A stretch of 64,000 nucleotides of DNA from Mytilus californianus (lineage: Eukaryota), in the NCBI RefSeq assembly GCF_021869535.1, contig NW_026262679.1, positions 30,814,001-30,878,000 on the forward strand. Reading direction: 5' to 3'. Of this stretch, positions 27,481 through 57,667 are shown piece after piece (position 1 is the stretch's first letter; each line of letters begins with the position of its first letter). Made by a program: the position numbers and the translations under genes. The notes beneath the pieces are model-generated. The model saw nothing but the letters and a program-made list of their open reading frames with translations. It was not told where the DNA came from and ran no database searches.

Positions 27481-27539
27481 GAATGTATTTGGTACAGTGA
27501 TCATTGAACTTTTAGATCAACATGATTCAGATACGTTTT

Positions 27540-29936
27540 TGAAAGTATCATTTCAAGTAAAATTTCAGATACACTTACCAAAAAGAAGGCTTTCAAGTTA
27601 CAATATGTGCTTTGAGTGGAGTTAGTAAAAACGAACCCTGCAACTGGTGAAAGGACTTACGTCACTCCATTCTTTAGATCATATGTAGTAACTATCACTC
27701 AATCGATAGATCTTGAATTGGAAATTGCATTCATTTAGGAAAATATGAAAGAAAATATGACAAAGTACATGCGTGAAGGTAGTGGATGGACATTTGGTCA
27801 CAATGAACAATTACAAATTCATTTGAATAAATTTAAACCACTTAAAGGGGGTTCGTTCATAGCTCTTCCATCAAAACTTGCTCAAAAGAAGGCTATTATT
27901 AACGTAAAGAATAAGGATGATCGATATTTCAATGGGCGATATTATCAGCACTACATCATGATGAGGTGGATCAAAAAAGTACTAATCGGGTAAGTCAATA
28001 CAAGAAATGGGAAGATGAGCAGAAGTTTGACGGTATTAAATTTTCAATGTCACTTAAGTCCATTGACACATTTGAAAGACAGAATACTGATTTCAATATT
28101 AATGATGTTGGTTATGATGGTGTAGAAATAGATGAGAATGAAGAAGAAAAACTGGAAGTTTACCTTTTAAGGATATCAAAGAACACCGGGGCGAAACACG
28201 TAGACCTGTTGTTCTTGACTAACGCTAGCAAACAACATTACTGTTGGATCAAGAGTTTATCACGTCTTTTGACTTCTCAAGTAACAGATCATAAAGAATC
28301 AGTCTATTTTTGTCGCAGGTGTTTGAATCACTTTTCACGACAAGACATTTTAGACGAACACATGGACTATTGCAATCAAAAGGAAGCAGTGAGAATCGAG
28401 ATGCCGGAAGAAGAAACCTTTTTTAATTTTCAAAACTATAAACGTAAAATGAGAGTTTCATTCGTGATTTATGCCGATTTTGAATGTTATTTAGAGAGGA
28501 TAGACACCTGTCAACCCGATTCGTCAACACCTTACACGAAAGCCTATCAACGACACTTATCATCTGGTTTTTATTATCGTGTAAAATATGTACATTGAGA
28601 CTACAAAGAAGCAGAAGTGTACTGTGGAGAAGATATAACGAAATTATGTAGCAGGAAGTAGGAGAGATTGCTGAAATTAACAAAGATGAAAAAGACATGG
28701 TAATGCCGGAGAAAGATGAGAAAAGCTTTAAAGTAAGTATTGTCATATTTGCGATGATGCATTTAGGAAGGATAAAGTTCGTGATTACTTACAGTAAGTA
28801 TCGCGGTGCAGCACACAAGAAGTGTAACTTAGAGTTTCAACTTCCAAACTTTGTACCCATCGTGTTTCACAATTTAAGTAAGTATGACGCCCATTTGTAT
28901 GGAATTAGTATTTGGAGAAGGACAAATTCACTGAATCCCGAACCAGGATGAAAAATACATCAGTTTCTCTAGAAAAAGTAGATGGAGATTTAAAGATGCG
29001 ATTTATTGATTCTTTGAGGTTTATGCTAAATTCTCAAGAAAAATTAGCAATGAAACTAACGAATGATGAATTTAAGGCGGTGAAGAAATGTATATAGACT
29101 TAAACACCAATATTCGTGCTAAGGCTAAGACTGACTCTGAATAAAATTTTATTAAGTTGATGAATAACTCTGTGTTTGGTAAGACCATGGAGAACATTCG
29201 TAAGGGAGTTGATGTGAAATTAGTAACAACAGAGAAGCAAGCATTGAAACTTGTAGCTAAACTAAACTTTGATCGTCGGGTTGTCTTTACTGAGAATTTA
29301 GTAGCAATCCACATGAAAAAGACGAAACTCAAATTCAATAAACACGTCTTCTTAGGAGCTTGTATCTTAGATCTTTCAAAGATCTTAACGTATGACTTTC
29401 ATTACGGGTTCATACGGGAGATGTATGGTAACAACGCAAAGCTTTATTTTGCCGATACTGACAGCTTGGCTTATGAATTTCAGACAGAGGATTTTTACCA
29501 AAATATTGCTCCACATGTTCAGGATAAATTTGATACGATAAATTATCCGAACAAACACCGCTCTGAAATAACAACCGGTGTTAATAAGAAAATCATTGGT
29601 AAGTTTAAAGATGAATGCAAAGGTAAAAATATGACAGAATTTATTGGTCTTAGAGCTAAAATGTATTTTTACAAGGTAGAAGATGTAACCACTATTAAAG
29701 CCAAAGGAATGAAACAAAATGAAAAAATCGTTGAGCATAACATCACTTTTGAGGATTATAAGAGATATCTCATCAAGCAGCAGGAGATATATAGATCTAT
29801 GAATGTCATCCCTAGTCATCTTCATCAGATGTACACCGAGGAAATCAACAAGATCGCCCTTTCAGCCAAAAATAACAAACGGTGCATCCTACCAGATGGA
29901 ATCAGTACCCTGGCACATGGACATTATAAAATTTAA
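27540..29936 (+). pseudogene. polB: Protein-primed family B DNA polymerase, frameshifted and internally deleted
   Basis: GSGW, GGSFIALP, KKAIINVKN, CRRCLNHF, IYADFE, EndoVII-like CHIC...YRGAAHKKCNL, FHNLSKYDAH, FIDSLRF, KLMNNSVFGKTMEN, YFADTDSL, GKFKDE, LAHGHYKI. Confidence 0.93.
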
Positions 29937-29975
29937 AAAATACTTTAAAGAGACCCAACTCATAAATCATAATTA

Positions 29976-30137
29976 ATGATGATGATGAACTTACAACAGT
30001 TTTGTATAAGAAAGATTTTTGAGGCTGGGATTCCAAGCGACGATCTACCTCAACTATTGCAAATGGAAATTAACTACTTTCAACAGTATCCCATATTTAA
30101 TCACATAGACTACATGAAGGTGCGAGAGTTGTGTTGA
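29976..30137 (+). CDS. 53-aa Maverick ORF with a SOCS/BC-box-like motif
   Basis: MMMMNLQQFCIRKIFEAGIPSDDLPQLLQMEINYF; below the ORF-track length cutoff. Confidence 0.35.
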   Translation: MMMMNLQQFCIRKIFEAGIPSDDLPQLLQMEINYFQQYPIFNHIDYMKVRELC

Positions 30138-30328
30138 TAGAAGTAAGAATGACTCGATTAAACAAATGTTATAATTATTCAATGTGTAAAGAACGAAAAC
30201 GTTTGAACACATGTAAACAGATGATGAATGCTTTCCAAAGACGATTGCAACTCCGCGCTCGTTTGAGAAATAAAATAAACGATAGGAATACACAATTTAG
30301 TTCTTCCCAACACACCCCTATCGAACAG

Positions 30329-30661
30329 AACTTGGAAAAAGCAGTCAACAGTCTTAAGATACCTCCTTTTAAAGGTATATTTGTGCGGGATACCCTACGA
30401 TCCACACCACACCATGAAGAGTGTGGTATTTTAAACCACAATACCCTAATGGGTTCGGGAACACATTGGACGTGTTGGTTTAAAAATAAATTCACAAAGG
30501 TGTACTTTGACTTTTATGGATTACCACCACCCAACGAAATGGTAGACTACCTAGAACCTACAATTTACAACACCGATGAACTACAAATAAGAGGAACAAT
30601 GGTCTGTGGACACTTTCGTTTGTACGTCTTATATGACAGACAAGTTTGGATTTTATGGTAA
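30329..30661 (+). pseudogene. pro: Adenain-like cysteine protease
   Basis: FKGIFVRDTL...GILN...GTHWTCW...YFDFYGLPPP...ELQ...CGHFRLY (catalytic H, D, Q, C). Start approximate. Confidence 0.88.
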
Positions 30662-36197: not shown

Positions 36198-37018
36198 TTA
36201 TTGCATGTTAATCCAATAAATAAATGACTTAGGGTACCCTTTCCATTTAACAAAGACCTCTTTCACACCATCCTTAGTTCGGTTTCGCAAAACCTTTTCG
36301 ATTCGGTACAAGTCTTAATCCGTCTTTTGAAGTTCGGGCTTGTAGAAGGATCTTTGTATTTCCTCATCATTAAAATCCTTGTTACGCTAGGTTTGTGGTT
36401 AAGTGTTTAACACGTGGGATACCGTAAAGACTTCTTCGGTTCATCTAGGGGTGTATCCCTTTTCAAAAATGGTTTTCTATTTAGTGATTCGAACTTTATC
36501 CCTTACTTTAAATTTACCCTGTTTTAATGGAAGGTCACAATACAAATTCAAAGAGACTTTTTTCATGTTCTTTTTTACTAGCAGCGATAGGCGTCCTTTT
36601 TTCTTTCATCGTACGGTTCCAAAATTCAACGACATTCAATTTTTCTTCATTCTCCGTAGAGTACAGTTCAATATCATGCTTCCGAAGTAGATCCTTGACC
36701 TCTTTGTTGTAAAATTCAGTACCTTAATCTGTCCATAATTTTTGAGGAATGCGTGATGATGATTTGAATACTGCTTGGAAAGCATCTCTGATCATGACAC
36801 CTTTCTTGTTTTTAGCGGTATGAGCCATCCGTATTTAGAAAAAACATCGATGATACTTAGAATGAATTTAAATCTTTGTTATCGCGAAAGAAGGAGCTCA
36901 TATCGACTAAATCTGCTGTCCAAATTTCATCCACAGTTCTAGCGATCACACGTGTTTTCTTGAATTTACGTCGAATGGGTTTAAGTAATTCTTCTGTTAA
37001 TTGATCTGTCCAAAGCAT
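36198..37018 (-). pseudogene. int: Retroviral-type DDE integrase with C-terminal chromodomain
   Basis: MLWTDQLTEELLKPIRRKF...WTADLVDM...IDVFSKYGW...LWTD*GTEFYN...VVEFWNRT [deletion]...FEKGYTPR*TEEVF...RIEKVLR...FVKWKGYP. Confidence 0.93.
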
Positions 37019-37496
37019 AAAGTCCTAAACTTAATCGCATTTTGGTTCCGATGAGGGATTTAACGATACCACGATCCATTTTCTCTCTCATGGTTGGATT
37101 GTTGATGGAGTCTAATTGACTTAACATATTTTTATCACACACAGAATTACGTGTCGGTGTATCTTTATGTCGAGCATAACAGAGATCATGACGATAGGCA
37201 GCTTCATCGACTCGATTTAAAGATTTAGACCAAGATTTAGGTGTTTTATCTGTATTGAGTCGTTGATGTAATTTATTCCCAGGTCCCGTAAACTGATGTC
37301 CCGGAAGATGCATTTCTACGGGTAGATGGTTAATGACTTTATTCATGAAACCCTTACCACTATGGACAAACTGAAATTTCTTAGATCCACATACGGTGCA
37401 GATTCCACCTTTTCTTCGTCGTCCGTTGCTAGTCGTCTCTTCGAAGAGACTTTTCGTTTATGTATTCCTCTTAAATTTTAAACAATAGATTTTCAT
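36981..37496 (-). pseudogene. Zn-ribbon plus parvovirus-type phospholipase A2 protein (PLA2X-like)
   Basis: MKIYCLKFKRNT*...NGRRRKGGICTVCGSKKFQFV...GKG...HLPGHQFTGPG...NRVDEAAYRHDLCY...CDKNML. Confidence 0.8.
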
Positions 37497-37509
37497 TTTA
37501 TTTAAATAA

Positions 37510-38150
37510 ATGGACGTTGAAGATATCTTATAACTTTCTTCTTAAATAGATGAATGGTTAGAGTACGATTGTTTGCATGTTTTTCAACACATCTATCGAC
37601 TTTTACAAAAATCATTGGAAAAAGGATACACAAAAAAAGTTTCTCGTGATCTCTTGTCCGTTTGAAGAAAATGTCCTCACTCTTTGATCGATGTCGTAGA
37701 AGATTTACCTCCACCTCAACAACGTAGTTGTATCTTTTATGAACAAGGAAACGAAGTACCAGACCCTAGATAACTTGATCCCCATCGTAAGAACTTAATG
37801 GTGTTTGATGATTTGATGTTGAGCAAACAGAATAAATGTGAAGACTATTAAGTCCGAGGTCGACATAACAACTTGGATTAATTTTATTTATGTCAAAATT
37901 ATTTCAAACTTCCACGTCAAACGATTCGTGAAAATAGTAACTTTATATATTTATTTCCACTAGACGCTAAAAGTCTTCAACACATTCATCGCGATCATTG
38001 TTGTTTAGATTCAACCGTTTAAGTTTTTAAAACGTTGTGCAATCACTGCAAGTCTACACCTTACCGATTTGTGACCATCGATTTGGCTAGATCAAAGGAA
38101 AATGGAAAAGACAAATCTAAATTAAAAGAGTTCTATCGTTTGCAAATAAA
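37510..38150 (+). pseudogene. FtsK/A32-like packaging ATPase with the Walker A region deleted
   Basis: WLEYDCLHVF...VPDPR*LDPHRKNLMVFDDLMLSKQNKCEDY*VRGRHNN...QNYFKLPRQTIRENSN...FVTIDL. Confidence 0.85.
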
Positions 38151-38480
38151 ATAATAAACCCAAATAACGATTTTGAAGAATATTTAACTGTTTGGTGATA
38201 GTAGCAATAGTAGTAGCGATGATGATAATTTAAGATATTGTAAAGAACATAACTTTCTACGTTATGACGACAGGGTAAATCTATGTTTAACATGTGGTGT
38301 TGAATAAATCTATAATTTATTTGACCATGATAATGATTTCGACAATTGGAATCTAGGAAAAACCTACAATCGTCGGAAACATCAACAACCACCATGTAGT
38401 GCAATGACAAACAGAGGACATCAATGCACTCGTCCATGTCAACCCAAGAAAAAACTCTGCCTTAGAGACTTGAATTTTAA
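38151..38480 (+). pseudogene. VLTF3-like N-terminal zinc ribbon joined to a CCC(H) finger
   Basis: CKEHNFLRYDDRVNLCLTCGVE*...DFDNWNLGKTYNRRKH, then CSAMTNRGHQCTRPCQPKKKLC. Confidence 0.4.
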
Positions 38481-38571
38481 GAAGGGGAAAGTAGTCTATA
38501 TATTACCCCCATTGTTTCAACGACTAATTAAATGCTAAAGAACTTCAACGCTTCATTGCTTATAGGGCGTT

Positions 38572-38640: not shown

Positions 38641-41402
38641 AATAAATAAATGACGTTCATCAATATCACCGATCCTAAACAACGTGAAGCTCTTGCTAAG
38701 GAGTTACACGATATCATGCGTAGCATTCAAGCTAGCAACTTACAACAACAATTGGATACACAAGGATTGAGTCGTGATCTTAACAATGTTTTTAAACAGG
38801 TTGTAGAAGCACAAGAGAAAACAGTTTCTAAGATTCCTAAGACGATTGAAGATCTCCCAAAGATCCTACCACTCCCTGCATTGCCTCCTCTACCTCCCAA
38901 GTTTGCAGATCCACCTACAAACATTATTAACGTTGGTCCTCTAGCAAAACTTTATTTACACCTTATGACTACTAACACTAGTAACTCGAATTTAGCTTGA
39001 ACGGACAAAAACGCATTAACGGCATTTAAAAAAGATTAATGATAATTAAATAAAGATTGACAAAAATTAAAAATTATTTTTAATGCATTTCAATCCATAT
39101 CAAATCATTTTAATACCAGTCAAATAGTTTCCCTTGCGGTCATTCAAGTTAATTTGAGATGTGGTTAAACTGCGTCAAACTAATTAGCCACGCCCCCGTT
39201 AAACGGAATCAAACTGATGTTAAGTCCTTTTAAATTTAAAGTGTCCGCCTTTTTGTAAGGTAAATCACTCAAGCGGTACAGCATCCTCGTGTATCTATCG
39301 TTTAACCGTTCCGAGCGTTATCGATTTTAGTATGAAAAGTAAAAATGTACCTCTTACAAATATTCACATTAAAATTAAATAATGACAAATACATGTGTAA
39401 ACTAAGTTTTTTATAGTTAATGATGCCAGATTTTCAAAATGCATCGAAAATTATAATTAGTTCTTTTTTTTATTTGTAAACACGCAGCAGCTCTTGAGAT
39501 AAAAAAAAAAGTGACTGTGATAAAAAAAAAATATTATTTTGCTTGAAATAAAACGAGAAAGCTGGTAGTTATTTAATAGCCAATAAAGGGACCAAAATGA
39601 GCATGTTTGATGAATGCCAATGGATGTTGTACGCAAACATTAATCTCTATGAAGGTATCGTCTGATCAAAAATGTAATTTCGTCGAGAATATGCAATAAT
39701 ATTTGCCACGGTACGTTAAGCAAATTTAATTGAACCAATTCCGTCCCGAACTTTTAAAAATTCACATTAAAACATATCTTTTTTTTTTGTCTAATTCGCC
39801 TGGAAAATTAAAATTTCGTTTAGCTTAAACAGTTTTAAATGCGCCCCGTACTCGTATACCGGATACCAAATATACATGAACACTGTTTGTCTTGAGTCTG
39901 ATAGTGCTCTGCTAGTCATTACTAAATTCATACGTGTAAAACTATACAATTTTACTCATCTGCCTTCAACACAAAGTCTTGGCTAACACCGAACAGCAAG
40001 CTATACGGTGCCCCAAAATGACCAGTGTAGAACCATTCAAACGGAAAAACTAACGGTCTATATATTCGACTTTTGAAATACATAATCAAACAACAACCAC
40101 TAAACAGCAGGTTAGGGCAGATGCAAACAAATGCAGCGGAGTTCAAAAGCCCAAATACACGAATAATTCTCGAGACTTAAGTGACATTGTTTTAATAAGA
40201 TCAGAACCTTATATGTGTTAATTTTAAAGCAAAAGATATAAGTTTGTAAGAAAATATTGACGTACCAATTCTAATAGCTAAGAAAATTTCCTTTTGCTAA
40301 ACGATGATAACATTTTAACATTTTGGAATACCTTATAATTCATAATCTATTTCTGAAACGACTTCTCGCCTTGAACATGTATGAAATGTTTGCCACTGGA
40401 CGTTAAACAACCATTAATCAATCATTCAAATTGTGCTTTAAAAATGAATTAAGCCGCAAGTGTATCCATCAATGAGTGCTGTTGTTTGTTTATCCATTTA
40501 ACATATACTGAATTCGTTTTTGTCCAGAATTATATTCCTTAGAAGAGTTCAAGTATGTAAATAAATTCATAGGGTATCATGTGCTCGTTGAAATTTTTCA
40601 GTGAAATCAGTATTGTGTGTCCAACGTTCTTTCATGCATATCAAATGTTTATCCACTTTTTGCTGTTTGTAGTCTGTTAGTCCTCGGTCTCCATACTTTA
40701 GCACACACTTATGTAATGACAAATCTCGAAAAGGGGAACATTTTTTTTTATTGAAAAAAAAAAATAAAACAATTTCTATATTCTATTATTCAATTAACCG
40801 ATGTACACCTAAGATTTTCAACTATAGATGTTGAATTAAAAAAAAACAATAATAAGTCCCAATGTATTTTTATGGCAAACATATCTAAAGGGTTATTTTC
40901 TCATGCAAAATAATTATTTTTTCATTTTTTCAAGATAATAGTGTTATCAGATATGTTCTTTGACACGTGTCTTACGGGTCACCGATTTTCGGCAAAATCA
41001 AAGAAAATCAGCAAGTGCCTAAACATTAGTTTTAAGAATGTTGATGCTGTATTAATATATGGAACATGTCTTCATACCAAAATATAGTACTCACATTTAA
41101 TTTTCTTGTAAATGAAATTGGGAATGAATATGGGGATTATTGACGTCATACTCAACTCCGAAATATATAAAACAAACTAAAATTAAAAGTATACAAGACT
41201 AACAAAGGCCAGAGGCTCCTGAATTGTGACAGGCGCAAAAATGCGGCGAGGTTAAACATATTCATATTTTTTTTTCGAATTGTCTTTTTTTGTGAAATTA
41301 TTCAGCAAAAAATTAATCTATTTATTTTTAATACAATGAAACAAGATTTTTTTTAACGAAATGAAGTATTTTTTCGTCCCTTATATTCAAAGGAAATAAA
41401 CA

Positions 41403-41440
<38 letters not shown>

Positions 41441-41887
41441 CGCCCATCCTTCTCTTCACAACCCGCCTCCCCCTTTAAATCCAGAAAAGAATGAATTGAC
41501 ATTTTATTAAAAATAAATGTAAAATCATAGATAAACTGCTATTATATTCTTATTAAGATCTACATTTTAACAGATTCGGGGACTAATATTTCTCTAAAAG
41601 CCCATGCATACACTAATATTTGTGTGTTTTTTGTTTCAAGTTGTTTCAATTATCATTTACATGTATGAGGCTATAAATGGGACCACCATTTATAAGTATA
41701 TGAATGGGGTTTACAGATTTGAGAATTATGAGGAAACTAAGTTAATAAGAAGCGAGGCAAAAAAAAACTAGATAACAGAATATAGAGGTGGTGTAACCCG
41801 AATAATTCAGTCGTTATATTCCGCTGATCTACGATTACTACATAAATTCAAAATTTTATGAATGTTGACATTGATAGAAATAGTTTT

Positions 41888-42553
41888 TATACGCCCGTCA
41901 ATTTTTGACGGGACGTATTGTGGTATACAAATGTCCGGTGTCCGTCCGTCCGTCCGTCTGTCTGTCCGGCGTAAACATGTCGCACCGTAACATCAGAACG
42001 ACTTATCCAAATTTTATGAAACTTAACATAGTTGTTTCTTATGATAGTCAAACGATCTGTATACTTTTGGTGAAAATAAGATTAAAATTTTTTGAGTTAC
42101 GGGACTTAGTAACTAAACCAGGTGTGTGTTTTTTTTTCACATGTCGCGCCGTATCTCAAAAACAATTTATGATTATTGCTTGAAACTTTACACACTTCTT
42201 AGTTATGTTAATCTTAAGATCTGTATACTTTTTGGTGATGATTCAAAATTTTATTTTAGAGATATTGAGTATTTTGTTAAAAAAGGGGGAGGGGTTTTTC
42301 CACATGTCGCGCTGTATCTCAAAAACGATTTATGATTATTGCTTAAAATTTTACACACTTCTTAGTTATATTAATCTTAAGATCTGTATACTTTTTGGTT
42401 TTGATTCAAAAGTTTATTTTTGAGATATTGTGTTTTTTGTAAAAAAGGGGGTTTTCGCATGTCAGGCCGTATGTCAGAAACTATTTACGATTATTGAATA
42501 ACAATTCACACACAAGACGACGGGCGTATCATGCGCTTATGGCGCAGCTGTTT
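41888..42553 (+). mobile_element. HINE/DINE-1-like element, copy 2
   Basis: Same structure as, and closely similar to, 33509-34163. Confidence 0.75.
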
Positions 42554-43230
42554 ATTTGAAAATATTTTATCGAACTTTGATATCGTAATCTGTAAAGTTC
42601 AACGAGACTTTTTGTACCTTTTTTCATGGACTGTCTCGGATATAACGATAACGCAAATCACGTGTATATAACATGGTATAGGCCCAGGAAGATATCATTT
42701 CATTATCACTTCCTAATATCCAATCCACAGACACGAGTCACACGACATCCCCGTATCTTCTAATTTTACTAGTATACGAATTACCAACAAATTTGGCAAT
42801 TACCAGTTGTTGACGCTAGTAAGAAAATGAATAGTTAAGTTCGAATTATTATTATTTCAAATGTCAAAAACACTTTAAGTATTATAACAGATCATCTAAA
42901 AATCAAACTAAGTAAGAAGTATCACAGCTCAGTTCAGGCCAATGTCACTCATTAGGACTTATAACTAATTGAAATACTGACACATTGCTTATAGTTTGCC
43001 TAACGCTAATTTGAATCGTAAGATATTACTGATTTAAAAACTTGTAGTATCAAAATTGAATTGCATAAATTAAAAAGAAATACATTGTGTATCTAAAGTA
43101 TTTTCATCAGCTTTCCGGATGATCCTAATAATATTTACCTTTCAAATGATTTTTCTACAGAAGGTTATATATCATCTCTCTGGTCACTAAATGCAGTGCC
43201 CTAAAGCTAAAAGTCACCGTCAGATGTATA

Positions 43231-44508
43231 GACGTTGCGCACGATGTTGGTACTACTTAGCGTTTCACGACGTTCCTCAAAATAAGGCGATTTCGACGAT
43301 TTCAAAGAAAGTTTCAGGCGTTCAAGCATATTATTGATGATGTCAATTTACTGTTGTGAATTTGGTAACCGATTTTCGGTTTGTCTGAAAAAATGCATAA
43401 ATTTACAAATAAAACTCAAAGTGGTCGTATAGATATTTTTTAATGAAATTCATTTACAGGAGTTGTCAGTCTTTCCAGGCCATAATTGATAATTTTCCTT
43501 TCGGCAGCAGTTCGCATTAATGAATCCGATACAATAATGTCCAAATTTACACAGATTTATTTTTAATATAAATTAGATTTTGAATTCATATTCTCCTATT
43601 TTTTGCATATTTATTGTTGCATTTCTTCCCGTTTCCGTTTCCTTTCTATATTTTATCATTTCCCGATGCTTTCTTTGTCGCAAAATATTTAGGAAGTTAA
43701 ACATTCGGGACTCATGTTTTAAATTTTCTCATTTCCGTATTTTTGTGGCATATTCTTTGTTTGTTATAATTGCCAGCAATGGGTTTTCTCTATTTTATTT
43801 TATTAACAAAAAAATATACATGTTACTTTTGACGATTTAAAACTTGCAGATAGACAATGTTCCTTATATAAAACAAATATGCTATAAAAAAAACCCTAAG
43901 ATCCCAATATTTTTTTTATATTGATCTCATTTGGTCAACATTTGAATTTAAACTTAAACTATTCCTTTCTCATACATTGGTTGTATTGTAATTTATACAT
44001 GTATTTTTATTTTCATTCGAATTAAACTGGAAACAAATAATTACGACATAAAATTAAAAACCAGAGCATGACATCAATTACGTTTTGCGAACGTTGGGAC
44101 AAAACGGCTATACTTTTTGAAACGATCTAAAAACCTTGTTGCCTAACGAAAAAATATTAAACACTATATTGATTTTGCTTTAACACGCGAATAATTATAA
44201 CAATAGCAATATTATTGTGAAGTTTTACGATGATCAGAGAAAAAATACCGTAGGAGAGAAACGGAACTCTGATCTTTTGCACATAAAATGAAACGTTGGA
44301 CATTACGTTTTTGCGTAAAAATGAGATAATTAAGTGTTATAATTCCTGGTATTTTAAATTTCGATTCCTTTTTTTCTTTAATTTCAAGTCTAATGGAATG
44401 AATTCAATCAGAAATTACTATATTTTTATCGAACTGACCAGTCTACGTATTTATTTTTATGCTAATCTATAGCAAAATGGAATTGGTACATACATCGTGC
44501 GCAACGTC
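43231..44508. mobile_element. Candidate MITE with 17-bp TIR and 3-bp TSD ATA
   Basis: GACGTTGCGCACGATGT at 43231 and its reverse complement at 44492-44508, flanked by ATA on both sides. Confidence 0.4.
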
Positions 44509-47500
44509 ATAGTAAAAAGGCAAAACACGCTTAGTTGTTAATTTCTGTGTTATTTGGTCTCTTGGCGAGAGATTATACCACATCTCCTTATTTTTTTACA
44601 TTTGTTTGTGTTCAATGTGCAAACAATGCGAAAACATATTATATAGTATCTTTAAAATGAAACGGTGTGTAGAAATACCGCAAAGGACTTCTTAGTGCAC
44701 TAAGGACACAAAAACGATGTTTAAAGATCACAAAGAACATGGATATATTAAGTATATAACTCATAAATATAAAGTTTGGTATCAATAGATATTGTAATTT
44801 TGAAGTAAAATGACTTTTTAATCAGCGCGTGCCACTCGGTACGTGACCAACGGCTTATTGCAAATTCCCAATCATTAAGTTCAATCAACCATATCCAAAT
44901 AACAATCGTCTTTTGATCGTTACTAATTGATTAATTAATGATATTTGTTGAATAAACCTAACGGTTTAGGATGTTATAATTTGAAGATGATGAAAGAAAA
45001 ATTAAAAACTGAATTTTATGTTTACTTTGCCTTTGTTTTATTTTGTTTTGAAGGACATTGCTTTAGTAAACTTTTTTTTTTAAAGAAACCTGTTTTGAGA
45101 TAGAAATTGAGAAAAAAAATGCTTCTGAGATTTCATTTCCACATTTACAACTCTATAGTTTACATCATGACTATCATTATACCTTGAAAGACATTTGAGA
45201 GTAAAACATATTCTTCAAAACCCGATTATAGAAGTGATATAGAAAGACTTCAAGAGATCAATATTATTTTCAAAAAGAGAATAATCATATTAAATTGTTT
45301 TCTATGAAAGTTACCTTTATTACGGATGTCATTGTGTTTTTATTGTCATTCTCCGCCATATGTGTATTTTTTATAATTATAAAATTTAATTATGTTATTA
45401 ATATAACACTGATGCATTTAAAAAAATAATGTAAACCATATATTCTTGCTCCTAAATAAAACTCTTATAATCTTATCCTTAGTAAATCTTGTATGTGTAC
45501 CCATTAAAAGTATTTCGGTTGAACAAAATTACCGTTCTATAACTAAAATTTGGCCCAGTGATTTCAGAGGAGAAGATTTTTTGTAAAAGCTAACGACGAC
45601 GGACGCAAGATGAGCTAAAAATAAGAGTAGAAAATACGATATTATATAGAAGTAAAAAATATAACAGACAGAAATACAAAAAGCACCATATAACTGCATT
45701 TATCATGTTTATAAGATATTTCAGGTCTGCAAAAACATCACTATCTATCAAGCATATAAAAAAACAATTTCTTCTACTTAGAATATTACAGCAGGTCTTG
45801 TCAACCACACCAAAAAACAGTACTTTTAAAAAGATGTATAAACTTATCATCATCAGATAAAATATTAAAATCACCATTACTTCTTTTAACTTCATAAAAT
45901 AAACTTTCACGTAAATCTGCATATAAAGGACAGTCTAATATAATATGTTTCTCATCTTCAATTTTACATGTTTAATCAGTATAAAAAGTGGATTCTAAAC
46001 GGTCAAGGTTTTTCGAATTTCGGGATGTCGGGATTTAACTTTTTTTAAATTCGGGACTTCGGGATTTCATGTTTTTAAGCCCGGGATTTCGGGATCAGGA
46101 CCCCTCCGACCCCCCCCCCCCCCCCTCACAAAAGATATGATCATAAAATTTAAAATAATGTATTTTTACAAAGTCTATTTCTATATGCCATGTCCTTTGT
46201 GAAAGTTGTATCATTCCATCAGGTCCTTAGTGCACATTTTTCTTCTTAGTGTACGAAGGAGGTCCTTTGCGGTATTTCTACGAATGTGCTGCCTTGGAGC
46301 CTTTAAATTAGGAGACTGAATTAACGAGAGCTTCTAAACACCACCTAGGCCGCCTTTGTGCACTAAGCTCCTTTAACTGGACCAAGCCCATGATGGGATA
46401 GTGTTATGAATAAAAAATAAACGTACCGTCAAATGTAGTTTTTCCACAAGATATTTTATTATCTGATGTTGTTTGTCAAACAAATCAATCAACAAAGAAG
46501 CATGGATATTGAGCACTTGTATAACACTTGTACATAAGTTTAATAATGACAACTATCCATTTTGTTATAAAAAACATATGCATATTTTTTTTAATTTGAG
46601 GTTTCATATGACTTTAAGATCAATACCTCTTTATCTCTTCTAATTACGAAAACACAAGAATTATTTTTTTTTAGTTTGAAGTTATTTCTTAAAGGTTTAT
46701 TGGATCAATTAACAAGGTGATTAGACATTACACAAAGAAGAGCGCGTGCCACATTAAAATAATAACATAATTTTTTAAATTTTAAACTAAGGAATCGTTT
46801 TGAAACTAATTTTTATTAAGTTTTTGAAAAAAGTCATATTAATGGAAATTAGTTAAAAAGTCAAAGTTCAAAGTCATAAAGAAGTGTTCCGTGTAGAAAT
46901 GTTTTCGAAAGTCTAGTTTGTTCATAATTTCTCTATGTAAAACGGTTTTGTAAACTTCTTTAAATAAATTCGGATCTTCCCTCATCTGATCACCAGCATG
47001 GCTGAAGAAATTGTTCCCAGATGTATTGTGAGGTGACACGTCCAGGTATTCAAGCGATTTCCTGTCGGACTTTAAAACTCTTATTACACAATTACATAAA
47101 GCAAGTTGGTGCATCACTTGACCTCTGAGGGTATTGATCAGTGTACACGGCCGATAACTTGTAACTTTCCATTTTGAAAATATCAGGTGTAATATACATC
47201 TTTGTCTTGCGTGTCCGATAGTGATATACTATAGTCATTACTTATACGCTTGTTTATAAATAACGTTTCTGGTGTTAAGATTGATATTTATGAAAATCTT
47301 AATAATTCCCCCAAAAAGATCTGATAAAATAAAAATCTATTTACATATTTTCCAAGGGTATATACTCGTTGTCAATAGATATGGACATTTGAAACATACA
47401 CATTATATATGATTTCACAAAATGTACGCACTTGTCGATCATTTGTTTATACGGCTTGAAAGAATGTTATGGAACTATAATAATAATAGATAGTCTCAAT

Positions 47501-48426
47501 TAAGAATATATACATGTATATACATATTGAATATATGAGAGAAACATTCAAAACCAATCTGATTTTAAAACAGGTCGAAGTATTACTCGCTTTAATTTGG
47601 TTCGTCGAAGTTATGGACAAAGTAAAATTACAGATATATCTTTCGGTTAGATTATTTCGAACAGTTTAAGAAATTCGTCATCATCACAATTGTTGGGTAT
47701 AATCAGAGACATATGTCTAATGTATAATAATGTGAACATGGTTCTAATAGTACCTTAAATTATGTCAATTTTCCTGTTCCGACATGCATGTTATATATAT
47801 GCCACTGGACGTACATTAATGATCCCCAAAAAGAATTTCTGAATAATATGATTTATGATAGTTTGTATGAGTGTAACCATTGTAGCCAATGTAACCATTA
47901 TGTCAATGGGGGTTACAAAACAAGGTAACTCAATTTAGTGCAAATGTTGTGCCTTATATACCTTTTCTGCTCTCTGGTCGGATTGTTGTCGGACACATTT
48001 TCTATTTCCATTCTCCATTTTATTCAATTGGTTGCATGCATTTTTGTTTTGTCTCTCTCTGATGTTTTCGCAGAATTAATCTAAATATTTTAAAGAAGAC
48101 ATTTAACTCTTTCTTCTAAAACTTTTAGCATTAAAACCTAATTGCATGAAATTGAATTAGTATGTTATTATCAGTTTTATCACTTTTTCGGATGAACTTT
48201 ATAATATTGACCCAGGAAATGATTTTTGACAGAATTTTATATATTGTAGAATTCGTTCTTTTTATCGACACATTAGTTGATTATTTGCTTCCGTAAAATG
48301 ATATTTTTCGCGACGTCAAACTGTGAAATATCGGGAAAAAATGCATCTTTTCGAGATTTAACCATTAGCTTAAAAACGAGAACATGGACCCCCTCTTTTT
48401 AAAAATGGCATGATACTGTATGAAGA

Positions 48427-49249
48427 CAGAGACATATAATACAATTTGGCGTTTTACGTTTCCGCATTGTGGCACTACGTTTCCGCATTTTTATAGTACT
48501 CTTTTCCGCATTGTTTTTGCATTGATTTTATTAAAGGTTATTTACGTTTCCGCATTTAAATCTTTAATGTATCCCCCCCCCCTTTTTTTACTCACCAGTT
48601 GGGTGGAAGTAGGACTTCGAGCAGGATAAGTCTTTATGACTAAAATGAAACTACAAATGTATCAACTTAAAATGATAAAAATCACACATGGTCATATATC
48701 AATTAAAAGTCAATGTTCAGCACTAAAAGTTTATATATATTTTAAGCGTCAGTATACTATTATACAGTACATGTAGCACAGTTTAAAGCGGTAAACTTGT
48801 AGCCAACTGACTTTATAAAATCAACCTCGTATTCTATTCTCTACCATACTTGACAAACTGTTCGGATACGAATTCAGCACGTTCGCGATCATTTTTACGA
48901 ACTGATGCTATTGCTGATAAAGACCGAATTTTGATGTAAGTTGTTGTTTGGATCTTCTGCAAAACGTCCATAAAAATAAATATAATTGTGTGACATGGGA
49001 GAAACGATTCCGGCCCAGTTGTGGTTCTTTTGGTATCTGTGTTGGGAGGAGATGACCATATTTGATAATAAAGTCTTATACCGATATATCATTATTACCA
49101 TTTTTTACAGGTGAAATACAGGTAAAAATGCTGAAAAGTGGTATCTATTTATTTCGGAAAAGTAATGCACGAAAATGTGGAAACGTGAACTGGGTTTTTG
49201 CTAAAAATGCGGAAACTTTATACACCCATACAATTACTATATGTCTCTG
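48427..49249. mobile_element. 823-bp non-autonomous DNA transposon (P-like), 12-bp TIR CAGAGACATATA, 7-bp TSD ATGAAGA
   Basis: Perfect TIRs; TSD at 48420-26 and 49250-56; subterminal TTTCCGCATT repeats at both ends. Confidence 0.8.
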
Positions 49250-52200
49250 ATGAAGATTATTCGTTCCAACTTTTATGAAGAAATAACCGACTTTTTTCAA
49301 CTAGATAAATAAACAACAAAAATGCCGTTTTTTTTCTTCTAAAATCAATTTATTTCTTTAACAAAAAGGATTTTTGATAAGGATTGTTACACAAATGTAG
49401 AGCCCAATTTTGTAACGAAGATATTCCTTATCTCTTTACCGAAATACGCATACGTTTATCTTTTGAAACAAAATTTAAGGAGACAGAAATGTTCAAGAAA
49501 CCGAAATTTTTAGTAAATGTCGAAAACTTCAAACCCGTTTATCTTTAAAATTCAACACATGAAGATATAGATATAGTTTTTATTACATATTCAAGTTGAT
49601 TTTGTAAAAATTAGCTTGTATGTGAACTTTCATAAAAAAAACAGTGTTGTTGGTCGTTTGCCCATAATTGCCCTAAAGCTAAATGTCATCGTCAGATTGT
49701 GAGGGTCTGAATCGGGATTCATTATTTCTGTATTCTATAATTTTAGGCAATTTTTTCTATTCGTTATACCTTTTGCCGATCATTCTTTATTCCATGTATT
49801 CTAGAACCTCATCATTTTCTTTTCTATGTATTTGTCTGGTTATTTTCTGTTTTCTTTATTCTTTTGTCAATAATTTTCATCCACAACGTCATGTATAATG
49901 GAAGACGATAAACATTTTAGTATACATACCACCCGTTGTCAATTCTCCCCTGATATACAAACCACATGTAGTTATTTCTCACTTAGACACAGAACTTATA
50001 TATATATATATATATATATACAACTCGTCTAAACATCAACCCAACAATGTTAGATCTGTAAATTTGCTTTCGCAATTTTTTTGTTCTTCCCTCGCCGGGA
50101 TTCGAACCCATGCTACTGAGATATCGTGATATATATTTTACGTAATAGTAACGAATGGAATTTTATCGCACTGGCTTGTTAAATGTATTTTGATCTGACA
50201 ACAAGAATACATTTGTTTATCATAATTTTTTACTTTATCTAAAATTAAGAATGGAAATGGGGAATATGTAAAAGAGACAACAACATGAAAACAGAAGGCC
50301 ACCAATTATATTTGATCATGTTTTAGTTTCGAAAAAGGCATCAACCATCGTATTTTCAAAAAATCTTTACAAGGATGATCAAAGTTTTAACGACCTTGAA
50401 TGGCTATACAGACTGAGCCCTCGCACGGTCGGTCTCTAAAATTTGCCGAATTTAAGAAACTTTATCAAGAGATAGGCTTTGCCTAGCTTTAGGCCCCGGG
50501 TTTAAAACAATATCCATTTAGGAACCAAATTGTGGCTTCTTTATATTTAATTTTGTCGAAGAGAACAATTACACAAAGTGCAACATGCGAGAAGAGGTTT
50601 CATTTTCGCTTACATTATTTTTTATTGAAGTGACTAATCTTTTGAGGTTACGTCACGGAAATATATTTCAAATGAAAAGGTGCAATTGGATGCATCCCTA
50701 AAAAAAAATAAAAATATAGAGATAAAATTACGGCTATTCGTCAATCAGACAGCAATCCTACATAAAAACAAGTAGGTTATCTGACAAATAGAATAAAAGG
50801 TTAACTTTAAGCATAACCCGCGCTGATATCAACTTTCTAAGTTCTGAGTAAAATTCAACATACATGTAGGACTCTGAAACGTAAAATATACGAAAGTTTT
50901 TTTTTTTTACGTACGATACACGGAGAGTGCCATTTCCTAAATACATACGGGTCCACAAACTATTATAATGTAAGGGTACATGAGGATCTCATTAGAGGAA
51001 CAAAGTAAAGATGCATGCTGAAGGAAGAATAATTTCCACACAGAGAACATCAAAAAGGACGATCTCTCAATTAGTATGCAACTGTAACTAATACACCCAT
51101 AGACATTAACACTAGTTAATGCTTTATATACTGACATTGAAACAAATATACTGCTCATATAAAATTTGTCATTACTTTCCCGGGAAAAAGAATACGTTTC
51201 CACAATTAAAGTCTACGCTTCCGGAAATAAATACCTTACTTTTCCGAGAAAATAGTACAATTCCGGTATGTTCAGGCAAAAGTAGTAATATCTTTTAAAG
51301 TCAAATCCTAAGGAAAGGATGCACACAAGAGCTAACTGTACACATTCTGGTATGTTGTGTGGTTGAGTTGCTGTCTCTTTTACGTCTTTATCACATCTTC
51401 TCTTCGTATATGTACGCGACTTTGATATCGTCATGCATGGACACAATACTTCACTACATTTCCATTTTCGTATTTTGACATGATTAATATACAAATAAGA
51501 AGATGTGGTATAATTGACAAATTCGAGTAATTATACTACATAACATAGGTGATGTCATGATCACAAAACTTCCAATAATTTTGACATTGATCATTAGTTA
51601 TATTTTACTATTTTGTAAATTTGAGTTATTGACAAACAATCGCAGGTCTTTATTTGTAGCACGTTCCTTCGTTCACGTTTCCGCAAAAAGAAAAAGAGTT
51701 TTCTTCTCGGACTTTAACAGCCCTTTCCCGCAATTATTTTCAAGATAATTTCATATAACACATTATGAAATCCCGACCAATGAAATTTATTTGAATATTA
51801 AACGTGGCCTACGAGAGCACCTAGATTAAACTTGGGAAGTTAGAATAGCCAATTATTTTTTTTTATCTAGTAATTACCGCTAAAATATGCATTACCGCTA
51901 AAATATGCCTTACACAATTATATGACAGAAACATTTTATCCGACGTGCTTTACAATGTTTAAGTTACCTTTTGGTCTTAAAAACGTTTTTGAAAGCCGCA
52001 AATATAAAAATAAGGGTTTTTTTTAAATATTCCTTTTGGGCCAGGGCCGACCGTGCGAGGGCTTAATAGCCAGTCCAGTTCGTCAAACGTCATTTCTTGC
52101 AAGAATTATTTTACATGCGGACATAACGATAATCCCTTCGTAAACCCACTTCAAATTTCATTTGTCGTTTGTTGCTTTTACACAAATAACACACATTTTT

Positions 52201-53449
52201 AACCAGTGACCGGTATTACAATTTTACACAGATTTAAAAGTTCATTGAGCTGTTACTTTAATTACAAGTTTTAGCAAGACGAAACTGTTTACTAAATGAA
52301 TTCAACAAATGTCAAGCTCATCTAGATCAATTTTATTATTTAACAAAAAAATGTTTTTAATTACAAGCTATTTTAAATGTCGGTATAAATGTTAATGTTT
52401 TTTTCTTGCCAAAAATATAATATGCATCTATTAAAACTTATTGTCTATTGATTAAAAAAACATCTTTCCCTTCTAGGTTTGTAATGAGCACAATTACGAC
52501 CTTCTTATTATCTTTCCGGTTTTTATTTTTTCGCAGATATATTTAAAAGACCATACCTTACTTACATGCCACGAGTTTTCATATTAGTAAGCAATATTGA
52601 AAACGAATAATTTGATATAAAGAGCTATTTATTCTAACAGATTAACACTTTGTACTTTTTAAATCGTGCATCAATATTTAAAAATTTATTATATATCTAT
52701 TGTTCATTCGTTTATCTTAATTGTGAAGCATGTTTATTTTTTTTATTAAAAAGTCTCACCGCTTGTATAACATTATACATTCCAATATACATATAAAACA
52801 TTACGTATAACATAAATATTGGAAAACATATATAAAACTAACCACCAGTAAAATATCTTAAATCGATAACGCTCGGAGCGGATTAATGATAGATACACGA
52901 GGATGCTGTTCTGCTTGAGTGATTTACCTTACAAAAAGGCGGACACTTTAAAGTTTAAAAGGACTTAACATCAGTTTGATTCCGTTTAACGGGGGCGTGG
53001 CTAATTAGTTTGACGCAGTTTAACCACATCTCAAATTAACTTGAATGACCGCAAGGGAAACTATTTGACTGGTATTAAAATGATTTGATATGGATTGAAA
53101 TGCATTAAAAATAATTTTTAATTTTTGTCAATCTTTATTCAATTTTCATTAATCATTTTTAAATGCAGTTAATGCGTTTTTGTCCGTTCAAGTTAAATTC
53201 GAGTTACTAGTGTAATAAGGCTGACAAAATCTTCGGTTTACGTTCTGAACACAGAAAATTCTTCATCGGAAATTCAGAGGTCATGATCGATGGAAATGAT
53301 CTCTTTGTGGATAGAGTAAGGTACAAAGGAACCCCTGGTTTAAGCGAACTCATGGTGATGACACAATCCATGGATTATGAGCCTGATGATGTTGAACGCT
53401 ATAGTGAGATCTAAATACACACCGGTGCCATTTACCACGGCTTATTTAG

Positions 53450-53640: not shown

Positions 53641-55081
53641 ATGGATAATGAATTTTTACAGCAAATCGTTGAGAATACAACACCGCAACATGGGTTATCT
53701 TTCATTATATCTGCTAATAACAACAAAATCGATACCCGGTTCAATCTACCCATTCACTTAAAAGATGGAAAGAGTTATGAAATGACACTGGTGAATCTAG
53801 TTACTTTCTACTCTTTCCCAAATATTCATGCAGGAAACAACACCTTTCGTTATTTTAATTATAATGGTTCCACCTGGTTTAGTATTGCACTGAAAACTGG
53901 TTCTTACTCTATCGAAAACATCAACAACGGGTTACAAAGACATCTGCGACTCAACAAACACCTCACCAAAATTCACATCGGCGACAATCGCAGTACACTG
54001 AAGGCAACACTTACTTAACTAAAACCTATCAAGTAGATTTTAATGCCAACAATAGCTTAAAAAAAAAAGTAAAATCACAAAAATACTGAACTCCGAGGAC
54101 AATTCAATCGGAAAGTCCCTAATCACATGGCAAAATCAAATGACAAAACACATCAAACGAATGGACAACAACTGTCATATTCCTGACTTGGTACAGGCAT
54201 TTTCAAATGTAGAAAATGGTGGATTGAACCTGGTTTTATAGCGCTAAACCTCTCACTTGTACGAGAGTCTCATCAAATTCCGTTATATTTACAACGATGC
54301 GTGAACAAAACAGACATAATAAATAAAATAGTCAAAATATGGGTACAGCAGTCATCACTGTGCTACAATATCAAAACAAACAATCATTTACAAAAAAGCA
54401 CAAAAGCATCTATCAAATTAAAAACCACATTCATTGCTTCGCGTGTCTGACGTCAGAAAATGTAAACGTCACATAAGAAGAAATTTTGTCGTTCAATGTT
54501 TATTCAAAACAATTTTATAATTTCACATGGGGAATGTTGGTATATAGGGTTAAAAAATCCAAAGTTATGTTAGAATTAATTTCAGAAATAGACCGAGATT
54601 TAAAATTGTCCAGAAGTTCTTAAGAATTTTTAAGAATCCACATATGGTTAATACCACTACGCGAGTAAAATAAATTTGTCGTTTGTCGTTCAAAGTATTT
54701 TCAAATTTATAATAGAACAATAACATAATGACATATACAATACAGTGCTGGGTTTCAGCCAAGGAATCTAAACACACTATCGAGCTACAAACGGTTACAC
54801 AGAGGGTGAGACTATATTGTAAACATCATTGGAATCAACAGCATTCACGTCAATAGTGATATCTTCAGTGGTAGCTATGTCAATGGATCACAAAAACCTA
54901 CCATCTATAGTTTTTTTCCAAATGTATTCCCCCTGGTATGAAAATCATCCAAACCCCTAGAAACTTGATCTATTTACCAATCACACTGAAAATCATCAAT
55001 CGTATGAGTACTACTCTAACGGATCAAAACGGAACTCCAATTGATCTGAGAGGTCAACATTGTCATCTTCGTCAGGTATAA
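53641..55081 (+). pseudogene. Minor capsid protein (penton, PX), interrupted at about 54059-54738
   Basis: TRFNLPIHL...YEMTLVNLVTFYSFPNI...NNTFRY...GSYSIENIN...; after the insertion NTVLGF...IVNIIGINSIHVNSDIFSGSYVNG...IYSFFPNV...NLIYLP...TDQNGTPIDLRG. Confidence 0.88.
54059..54738 (+). mobile_element. Interspersed repeat (AATACYGAACTCCGAGG family) inserted in the penton gene
   Basis: Same family at about 25355-25620; penton frame reads NSL|NTVLGF across the insertion. Confidence 0.7.
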
Positions 55082-55099
55082 ACACCTTAAAGGGAGGTG

Positions 55100-55594
55100 T
55101 TGATAGAAGTAATATCAAATCAAAATATAGATAAACTAGTCATGAGATACAATTGGTGTGTTTCAAAGATTGATTCAGATCATGTGATATGGTGTCTCGT
55201 CGATAAGGAGTGTCCATACGATTATCTTACCCTTTAGTCAGGTTGGAAGATTCGTGAGTACAAATTTGGCGATAGTGAGTGTATTGTAACCAAACCCCGT
55301 TTTTGTTCATTTGAATGTTGTTAAGCCTTCATCAAAGACAATTCACATGATTATAAATATGTAAAATCTAAACAGTTGTTAATGGAAATATTTAGAAAGG
55401 TAAATAAAAACGATGAACCTGAAACCTGTTGTTCAACGCGTAGAAGTAAAATAGCAATATTTGGGGGTAATGTTGAGTATTCTGAATTCAAAAACATATT
55501 TAAAGAAAATACTTACTATAAACAACGCGCTGTTGCATTACGCCCTGCTCAGATTATTTATGGTAAGGTGGAAGAGCATATGGATTGGGAATAG
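55100..55594 (+). pseudogene. NCLDV VLTF2 (A1L-family)-like late transcription factor relic
   Basis: One frame with two stops: ...RFCSFECC*AFIKDNSHDYKYVKSKQLLMEIFRKV...RRSKIAIFGGNVEYSEFKNIF...Y...P. Confidence 0.6.
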
Positions 55595-55664: not shown

Positions 55665-56287
55665 ATGAATTATCATACTTATGGTTTTAATTTTGACACA
55701 AGGTCAAGCAAATAAATTACAAAAAGCGGTCAAGACTAGTTGTCCTGATAGTATTTGTTTATCACATGCTAATTAAACGGGGGAAGATAAGATGTTGCTC
55801 ACTCAGCGACAAATACAAGAAATTGACTAGTTGTTAAAAAGTGGTAAAGATGGTATGGTCTTGGAGCTGAGTGTAAAACAGCTCAACCAAACATGCAAAA
55901 ATAAGGTGGATTCTTACCCATGTTTGCCAGTTAAGCTATGATAGCTCTTCCCATGTTAATTAGCAAAGAGTGTACTCCCCGCTTTGGGAGTAGGTGCATT
56001 GAGTGGTTTAGGTAGTGCTGCCATGAGCAAAGCCATTGGGTCTGGTCTCTACCTTAAACGTGGAGGTAATGTGTGCTGTTTAAAGGCTCGAGGTAAAGGT
56101 CTACATCTCACCCCAGGTCAACTTACTTCTACCTATGGGAATGGTCTGTACTTGAAACATGGAAAGCAGTTTTATAACTATTGAACATCGGTATACTACT
56201 GTTGCCTTCATTTATGATGGTAATGAGTTAATTATAGGTCCTAACAGTCCCTTCAAAAACATTCCTCTGTTAGGAATGGTTCTTTAA
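55665..56287 (+). pseudogene. Conserved Maverick core-like protein with GGFL and GxG motifs
   Basis: MNYHTY...TQGQANKL...MLLTQRQI...GGFLPMFA...LGVGALSGLGS...GSGLYL...GKGL...GPNSPFKNIPLLGMVL*. Confidence 0.7.
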
Positions 56288-56300
56288 GTTGTAAAACTAA

Positions 56301-56700
56301 ATGGATGACGTAGACTTAAACAAGCAAACGTATCGAGAAGATAAAATTCGATCCGTGAACACCTACAGAGGAAGAGGTGCTTAAATACACCAAAATTTTA
56401 AAAACATCGCTTGCATTCCTTTTAGTTCACTAGCAGTCCTTTTTTCTAATGAAGGGGTTAATGGTATTCTCCAAACGTATTAATAAAAAACGTAAAAAAC
56501 ATAAAGATACCGTACACCTTATCAGAACTTCTAAATCCAAGATCGAAGTTGCAGTTAGTAAAGCTTTGGATATTGATGACATTAGTGACATAGTGTTTAC
56601 CGGTATTGTTACATACTTAGTCTCTTACTACGATGAAAAACAAACATTACGAAAACCATCACACACAATAATAAAAATATCAGTAATAATTTCCCGATAG
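56301..56700 (+). pseudogene. Conserved small Maverick ORF (YRxDKI...hydrophobic stretch...KKH...VSKALD..IS)
   Basis: MDDVDLNKQTYREDKI...FSKRINKKRKKHKDTVHL...VAVSKALDIDDISD. Confidence 0.6.
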
Positions 56701-56773
56701 AAAATAACGTTACGAAGTATAAACATACTTTAACTACTTTTAATAATGACCGTACTGCGCATGCGTCGTAAGG

Positions 56774-56856
56774 GAAAATGTTCCATCATCATCCACTACA
56801 CAAATCACTCCGCTACCGCTTCGTGATTATGATCCGTTAGATGATGGAACATTTTC
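56774..56856. other. Hairpin with 17-bp perfect arms between convergent Maverick ORFs
   Basis: GAAAATGTTCCATCATC ... GATGATGGAACATTTTC, with an inner AATCAC/GTGATT stem. Confidence 0.7.
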
Positions 56857-56932: not shown

Positions 56933-57262
56933 CTAACAAGATCGTATGAGAACTACTCCTGTTTGTTTTTTTTTTTTTTTTTTTACTAACTTTAAAACCC
57001 GTACTTCTCATATAGGCTCCTTTCAAAAGTTCCATTTTTTTGTTTAGGCCACTACAAGCCCATAACTTAATCATTTCCTCTTCGTTTTTTAAAAAAAAAA
57101 TAGTTTTATTTCACCAAACTTACCATCTACTTCTATAACCTCTAAAATTTTGTAAATCACTCCGGTGGGGAGTTCTTTCCATTTTTAAGTTTCTTGATTT
57201 TGCTCCTGTACCTTTTCCTCAAAAGCGTTGTCATTTATAAAATCATCTTGTAAGAAAGCCAT
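56933..57262 (-). pseudogene. Small beta-rich Maverick ORF, possibly an OB-fold ssDNA-binding protein
   Basis: MAFLQDDF...*KWKELPTGVIYKILEVIEVDGKFGEIKL...KLWACSGL...YMRSTGFKVSKK...FSYDLV*; not in the ORF track. Confidence 0.45.
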
Positions 57263-57667
57263 ATTATTATTACTTATACCATCACTTTCTTTTAAAGTGT
57301 TTTTTTTTCTTCACAAATAGACTCTTCGTCTAAATAATTAAACTGTAAAGGAGGACTAGGAGGACTGTTGCGTATTCCAAAGGTAAAACTCATTATTATC
57401 ACTATTTTCTAAAAAGGCATGTTTAATTCTTCCTACAATTATATATTTTACTTATAACAATACTTGCTTTTTTATTTCAATATTTCAAACGTGTTTTTAT
57501 TAAAACAAAATCAAATATTTCATCTCTTACTCCTATTTGAAAATCAATAACTCCTATTTTTTACTTAGTTACTCTTCGTTTACCATCTATCTTCCATTTC
57601 TGAAATTATATGCTGATTTTCTACTTTAAAATTGAAAGTGCGGCTGAATCCCCCTTTTTACACTACG
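57258..57667 (-). repeat. Maverick right TIR
   Basis: Reverse complement of the left TIR, with about a 40-bp insertion and a divergent middle. Confidence 0.85.

Follow-up and report, generated by a model that had tools for sequence, protein, structure and literature searches.

Poxvirus VLTF2 is a zinc-binding factor required for late transcription. In vaccinia virus it acts together with VLTF3 and the viral RNA polymerase. In poxviruses, a late promoter overlaps the start codon, reading TAAATG. The mussel protein described here shares with the VLTF2/A1L family of Nucleocytoviricota (NCVOG1164) a split four-cysteine zinc site, an inserted hairpin, the helices that follow, a glycine pair and the predicted fold. 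It is shorter, with about 150–170 residues compared with 200–290 in the viruses, and the element that carries it, unlike these viruses, has no RNA polymerase, TBP, TFIIB or recognisable VLTF3.

In the available parts of PMC11253617, homologues of VLTF2 and VLTF3 are described as not detectable outside Nucleocytoviricota. The same source describes mriyaviruses, small dsDNA viruses with VLTF2; in contrast to the mussel element, these are free viruses of 35–45 kb with a giant-virus-like capsid and ATPase, VLTF3 and a HUH endonuclease. The element resembles animal Mavericks (Polintons, adintoviruses) that carry PLA2X, as far as these are covered in the accessible portions of PMC8502044 and bioRxiv 10.64898/2026.06.19.733378: inverted ends with a 6-bp duplication and an integrase are common to both, as are polymerase-like, ATPase-like, protease-like, penton-like, PLA2 and pX-like genes. 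It differs in adding VLTF2, which is absent from the accessory genes listed in those portions, and in that a major capsid gene was not found here.

A giant-virus late transcription factor has been reported in polintoviruses before and explained by gene exchange, namely VLTF3, in stony corals (PMC11131425) and Amoebidium (PMC11244446), according to the sections available; VLTF3 has an unrelated fold, whereas the mussel element has VLTF2. VLTF3 in polintoviruses is also reported in the accessible text of PMC8502044, and the available part of the Bellas preprint places VLTF3 in some PLVs, with a figure legend that lists VLTF2/3 for giant-virus-like PLVs. The main text of PMC4642659 does not mention VLTF, and neither do the available pages of the supplement to PMC8502044, which map a Mytilus adintovirus. 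In the literature searched, mostly outside subscription papers and Repbase and in part as excerpts, VLTF2 was nowhere reported from an animal Maverick or polinton.

A mussel Maverick carries a decayed VLTF2-like gene

The window, the whole stretch of 64,000 nucleotides of Mytilus californianus DNA that was analysed, contains a 31-kb Maverick at 26634–57667, which shrinks to about 11 kb when three insertions (5.0, 14.2 and about 0.7 kb) are taken out. It was inserted into a high-copy host repeat (26560–26633 and 57668–57760), uninterrupted copies of which join both flanks exactly at 57668. The features are as follows.

26634..26940, + strand: left terminal inverted repeat; 6-bp target duplication at 26628–26633
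26946..30070, + strand: broken DNA polymerase-like gene, a frame of about 3 kb with N-terminal Rho_N-like and DUF5763-like pieces
30101..30661, + strand: protease-like ORF
36198..37024, − strand: broken retroviral-type integrase with chromodomain (Pfam rve E=5.5e-4, below the cut-off; Chromo E=2e-6)
36981..37496, − strand: phospholipase A2-like gene of the PLA2X type (Pfam Phospholip_A2_4 E=2.6e-8)
37510..38154, + strand: broken A32-like packaging ATPase (Pfam Pox_A32 E=0.021, weak)
38188–38538, + strand: small cysteine-rich frame after the ATPase
38650..53414, + strand: Maverick accessory/core ORF, split by the 14.2-kb insertion at 38975–53213
53641..55081, + strand: penton (minor capsid)-like gene with about 0.7 kb of host repeat inside; ends 60 bases before the VLTF2 start
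55142..55594, + strand: VLTF2-family pseudogene, 150 codons from the first ATG, with two in-frame stops and one of four predicted zinc ligands gone
55665..56320, + strand: broken basic core (pX/pVII-like) gene
56434..56778, + strand: unknown ORF (tblastn: 76% to P0003 and 54% to P0035, two Mytilus coruscus gene models)
57262..57667, − strand: right terminal inverted repeat, 87–91% identical to the left arm, last base different; 6-bp target duplication at 57668–57673

The genes thus run from polymerase-like, protease-like, integrase with chromodomain, PLA2 and ATPase through the small cysteine-rich frame to the core ORF, and onwards through penton-like, VLTF2 and pX-like genes to the unknown ORF. 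Inverted ends with a 6-bp target duplication and a broken piece of a retroviral-type integrase mark the element as a Maverick, and VLTF2 sits inside the intact ends, flanked by the penton-like and core-like genes; the earlier note had placed it inside a Maverick. Nearly all genes of the element are broken, and this Maverick copy is therefore dead.

PLA2 and the chromodomain scored above the Pfam cut-offs; the integrase and the ATPase matched weakly. The remaining labels are ours. By its motifs, 26946..30070 is a putative protein-primed family B DNA polymerase, for which Pfam, PHROGs and a single-sequence structure model (pLDDT 33) returned no match; 30101..30661 is presumably an adenain-like cysteine protease and 53641..55081 presumably a penton, each again by its motifs and each without a match in the library searches. 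We assume, by comparison with other Maverick proteins, that the two halves of 38650..53414 are one gene, and the pX/pVII-like label of 55665..56320 is likewise putative. Across 18 frames of the element's own stretches, the two large inserts aside, no major capsid gene was seen; Pfam missed the penton too. Nor was an RNA polymerase or a recognisable VLTF3 seen in the element. The cysteine-rich frame, over 38188–38535, was considered as a VLTF3, whose N-terminal zinc ribbon its first half weakly resembles, and this was rejected, the similarity (E=0.21) not being significant; its second half is DUF5763-like, with Atlas look-alikes in giant viruses (score 0.88–0.91).

Several other mobile elements share the window. 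The 14.2-kb insertion at 38975–53213 has inverted ends of about 357 bp (96%), a 3-bp target duplication and no long ORF within, and its ends resemble the CMC/EnSpm type. The 5.0-kb insertion at 30732–35745 has inverted ends of about 775 bp (92%) with 21-bp tandem units and a 6-bp target duplication; we take these ends to resemble IS3EU. An unrelated retroelement contributes a 608-residue reverse transcriptase ORF at 3611–5437 on the + strand (Pfam RVT_1 E=2e-33), and two more short elements, at 59470–61044 and 61714–62884, have inverted ends that are about 82% and 80% alike.

The VLTF2-like frame extends from stop to stop over 55091–55594 on the + strand, with its first ATG at 55142. It is interrupted by a TAG at 55235–55237 and a TAA at 55322–55324, and all motifs quoted in the earlier note, which had described a single frame with two stops, are present in it. 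The window copy is no longer functional. Contigs from two runs of other studies cover 54998–55384 and 54998–55390, each with one difference, and both stops lie within them; the decayed sequence is therefore real and not an assembly error. A further independent-run contig crosses the 3' junction of VLTF2 with two differences. In about 6% of one RNA run (10.3 million records), no read fell on this copy.

Sequence and predicted structure identify the gene as VLTF2

A word-indexed search with the window frame (P0001, with X at the stops) yielded one close relative, P0002, a protein of 169 residues with an open frame on a contig of 942 bases; it is 51% identical to P0001 over 143 residues. Searching 1.84 billion representative proteins with P0002 by phmmer gave 277 matches at E<=0.001, from 150 of which, those listed, the relatives are described here. 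Among these 150 were three Mytilus coruscus gene models (P0003, P0025 and P0035) and two repetitive junk sequences; the others, iridovirus 350L among them, were proteins with a split cysteine motif, mostly 200–290 residues long. The top matches were giant-virus proteins and not host MYM-type zinc-finger proteins, the alternative that the earlier note had set out beforehand. The main alignment kept 141 of the 150; P0004, P0021, P0143 and several long matches were left out.

We built a profile from 140 giant-virus homologues, iridovirus 350L among them and no mussel-type sequence included. Against this profile, whose members were chosen via P0002 with some resulting bias toward matching, the window frame scored 74 bits (E=1.2e-15, scaled to 1.8 billion proteins) and P0002 reached E=5e-26. 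The best of 2,000 shuffles (1,931 scored) gave 8.4 bits, and elsewhere in the six frames of the window nothing exceeded 6.4 bits. Local identity between mussel-type proteins and those of PM_01, an uncultured family of Pimascovirales, or iridovirus 350L was 28–42%. The four zinc-site cysteines, the predicted ligands, are all present in P0002 and P0003, and three remain in the window copy. P0002 also retains 19 of the 22 columns that are strongly conserved among the viruses. Pfam matched neither the window frame nor P0002, and no Pfam model sees this subfamily: each family was matched by at most 1 of the 141 alignment members.

The structure model of P0002 (pLDDT 83) matched 34 predicted viral structures in BFVD at E<=0.001, with iridovirus 350L on top. 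Nine of the 34 are named VLTF2/A1L, from pithoviruses, medusavirus and the Feldmannia and Aureococcus viruses, and ASFV B175L was also matched; poxvirus VLTF2 came at rank 40 (E=0.63). This fold match is not independent, because the model was computed from an alignment of giant-virus matches. A PDB sequence search and Foldseek against solved structures returned nothing significant for P0002, and VIA-align against solved structures found weak treble-clef matches, the best to ribosomal L24e (Z 3.6) and one to human MYM5 (Z 2.4). Sequence profile and fold of the relative thus agree with the VLTF2 assignment that the earlier note had made from motifs, and the homology to giant-virus VLTF2 is, in our judgement, practically certain.

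The nearest virus relatives are Pimascovirales

Of 79 viral loci compared, 36 have GVMAG names. Supplement 1 of PMC8575486 assigns 22 of these 36 to PM_01 of the Pimascovirales; the other 14 were not found there. P0002 scored 35–58 bits against most PM_01-type proteins and 15–27 bits against a second, unlabelled virus clade. An inserted hairpin is common to the mussel protein, PM_01 and the iridoviruses and is lacking in the second clade; the corresponding spacing is 47–49 in mussel proteins versus 59–79 in PM_01 and iridoviruses, and 27–32 in the second clade.

Trees, which held no mimivirus, pithovirus or poxvirus sequences, placed the mussel clade near iridovirus 350L with varying support. 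FastTree did not settle its attachment (0.48). A quick LG tree joined the mussel clade and iridovirus 350L in a group of 18 rows (SH-aLRT 95), and a C20 tree, from which 15 of 78 rows had been dropped as near-duplicates or long branches, recovered the same grouping at 86/87 with the bootstrap unsettled. The stem of the mussel clade is long, at 1.7–2.5 changes per site. AU tests on 33 rows rejected neither a placement with the iridoviruses (p=0.58) nor one outside the PM_01/iridovirus group (p=0.58). The phylogeny with Pimascovirales that the earlier note had called for thus brings the mussel proteins close to iridovirus 350L and does not fix the donor.

Of 62 gene families in the viral loci, only one has a match in the element, so a single gene was transferred rather than a block, and none of the other element genes occurs within 6–10 kb of VLTF2 in 153 giant-virus loci. 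The closest virus relatives among the matches listed are Pimascovirales (PM_01 and iridovirus 350L), and the best reading of these comparisons is a single-gene transfer from a Pimascovirales-like virus, whose direction and source we infer. The capture appears to be old and to belong to the element family, not to this insertion, judging from the long stem and the several divergent copies described below. The earlier note had proposed capture from a co-infecting nucleocytovirus; the nearest homologues speak for such a source, and, given the AU tests, a particular donor lineage and a co-infection would both be presumed.

A start motif at virion genes fits a late-gene role

The motif AATAAATG stands at the starts of the ATPase, core ORF, penton-like and pX-like genes, four genes of the virion module, and is missing from the starts of polymerase, integrase and VLTF2. 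We noticed it after the fact, and it includes a poly(A) signal. As an 8-base form it is not enriched across the window (18 occurrences versus 11.7 expected; 8 of 100 shuffles were as high). A 10-base form occurs six times, versus 1.25 expected, three of them at virion-gene starts of this type.

A related signal marks the PM_01-type loci. There, TAA directly precedes 191 of 854 ORF starts (22%) compared with 3.9% of all ATGs, and only 2 of 110 starts in the second virus clade, which has a different VLTF2. The start of AATAAATG type matches the commonest start 5-mer of the PM_01-type loci (95/854). By family, TAA starts were found in 22 of 58 P9 minor-capsid-like genes, 1 of 17 TFIIB, 0 of 7 VLTF3 and 1 of 6 TBP genes; the ATPase-like family of these viruses has the motif at none of 11 starts. 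It is possible that TAA before PM_01-type starts is a poxvirus-like late signal.

At 37496–37510, PLA2 and the ATPase stand head-to-head across a perfect 14-bp AT palindrome, which is probably a two-way initiator. There, the arrangement favours an initiator over an overlapping poly(A) signal: with no same-strand gene upstream, the ATPase start motif is not a poly(A) overlap.

From these observations we put together the following proposal. An ancestor of the mussel Maverick family likely took VLTF2 from a giant virus related to the iridoviruses. It likely retained the gene as a zinc-finger helper, by which virion genes would be switched on via host RNA polymerase II. Since the element has no RNA polymerase, VLTF2 would need host TBP, TFIIB and Pol II. 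It may recognise, or help to load, an AT-rich initiator that overlaps the start codons of virion genes. Selection while in Mavericks, zinc binding and a role in transcription are each presumed here from comparison; the start motif and the TAA enrichment fit a late-gene activator and do not show one. A captured VLTF2 that activates virion genes late is nevertheless the explanation that we favour overall, with restrained confidence.

The gene could also have been captured and kept under selection for a different function, such as that of a virion protein that binds nucleic acid or of a protein that interacts with the host, with the start motif a general Maverick feature that host machinery reads. 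Compared with its virus relatives, mussel VLTF2 is missing the N-terminal part (roughly 70–90 residues) and a Trp-containing motif, and its stem is very long, so its job may have changed. VLTF2 lies within a virion module whose element offers it neither an RNA polymerase nor a recognisable VLTF3 partner, and its fold is of a general treble-clef type, weakly like L24e and MYM/TRASH domains (Z 2.4–3.6). The 19 strongly virus-conserved columns kept in P0002 speak against a change of function, as does the virion-gene start motif, which coincides with the 5-mer found most often at starts in the likely donor group. We regard a new job as possible, on the tentative side. An immune role as a STING antagonist, suggested by the VLTF2 homologue ASFV B175L, was dropped because the source paper is marked as retracted.

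The late-gene activator reading has a bolder form, in which a mollusc Maverick lineage would have taken the whole late-gene switch, VLTF2 together with the AATAAATG signal, and rewired it to host Pol II; this we hold to be doubtful.

VLTF2 occurs in further mussel elements

All three DNA runs contain VLTF2 contigs that are about 81–86% alike, beside near-identical ones. Within single contigs, joints tie VLTF2 to its penton and pX neighbours and to the downstream ORF, by short sides of 18–41 bases; the longest divergent VLTF2 contigs stop short of the neighbouring genes. In Mytilus coruscus, VLTF2 is present in three gene models, two of which fuse VLTF2 pieces to the downstream ORF, matched here at 56449–56778. 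VLTF2 is very probably a trait of a mussel Maverick family. The third M. coruscus model, P0025, joins its VLTF2 piece to a fragment like a PolA-like replication protein, which hints at a second Maverick type with VLTF2. Scans of viral contigs with P0002, a two-protein alignment and polymerase, penton and PLA2 pieces found no locus of a close relative, and neither did two scans of metagenome contigs.

Mussel VLTF2 copies are 39–51% identical to each other. One pair agrees at 33 of 53 virus-conserved columns versus 36 of 96 others (p=0.003), and two further mussel pairs gave p=0.02 and 0.03 in the same comparison. This column preference agrees with selection having acted after capture, with the reservation that conserved columns also align better. 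Summed contig depth on VLTF2, which is not copy number, amounts to roughly 20–25% of the depth on the penton and core genes; many relatives may therefore lack VLTF2, or VLTF2 may diverge faster.

Could the gene have been acquired from a giant virus a single time and then carried along as the element multiplied, without ever being useful? The two stops and the lost zinc ligand of the window copy would fit, as would the M. coruscus copies, which occur only as fragments in fused gene models, the depth below that of the neighbours, and the identity of P0003 to the window, 39% over VLTF2 compared with 76% over the next ORF. However, P0002 is an open frame of 169 codons at about 50% identity to the others, the differences between mussel copies avoid the conserved columns (the better alignment of such columns again applies), and a stem as long as 2.5 changes per site along which the zinc site survived is hard to explain without selection. 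We consider a gene that was never useful improbable.

Another reading does without capture: VLTF2 would go back to a common ancestor of polintoviruses and giant viruses, and most Mavericks would have lost it. The AU tests allow the necessary placement outside the PM_01/iridovirus group, and small viruses with VLTF2 exist, the mriyaviruses in the available parts of PMC11253617. Yet outside the mussel-type records no close relatives appear among the 150 of 277 matches listed from 1.84 billion representatives, and the higher scores of P0002 against PM_01-type proteins than against the second clade, together with the PM_01/iridovirus hairpin, speak against it; shared inheritance seems very improbable. 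That the gene is a piece of a host MYM/TRASH zinc finger, or a chimera made in assembly, is hardly credible, and both readings are refuted by the phmmer matches, the BFVD structure matches and the independent-run contigs: one Atlas look-alike cluster has zf-FCS in 17% of its members and the fold class is shared with MYM, but the Atlas clusters listed are 83–100% viral, human MYM5 reaches only Z 2.4, and both junctions are crossed by independent runs with one or two differences.

Implications

VLTF2 serves as a signature of the giant-virus phylum, outside which the accessible text of PMC11253617 describes it as not detectable, and VLTF2-carrying animal Mavericks therefore limit that marker. Under the favoured reading, a captured VLTF2 acting as a late-gene activator, its presence in mussel Mavericks would record gene flow from relatives of iridoviruses to polintoviruses in molluscs. 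A stripped-down VLTF2 beside a defined start motif would make both the timing of Maverick capsid genes and the molecular role of VLTF2 testable. If the switch was indeed taken over together with AATAAATG, mussel Mavericks would offer a polymerase-free system for learning what VLTF2 does.
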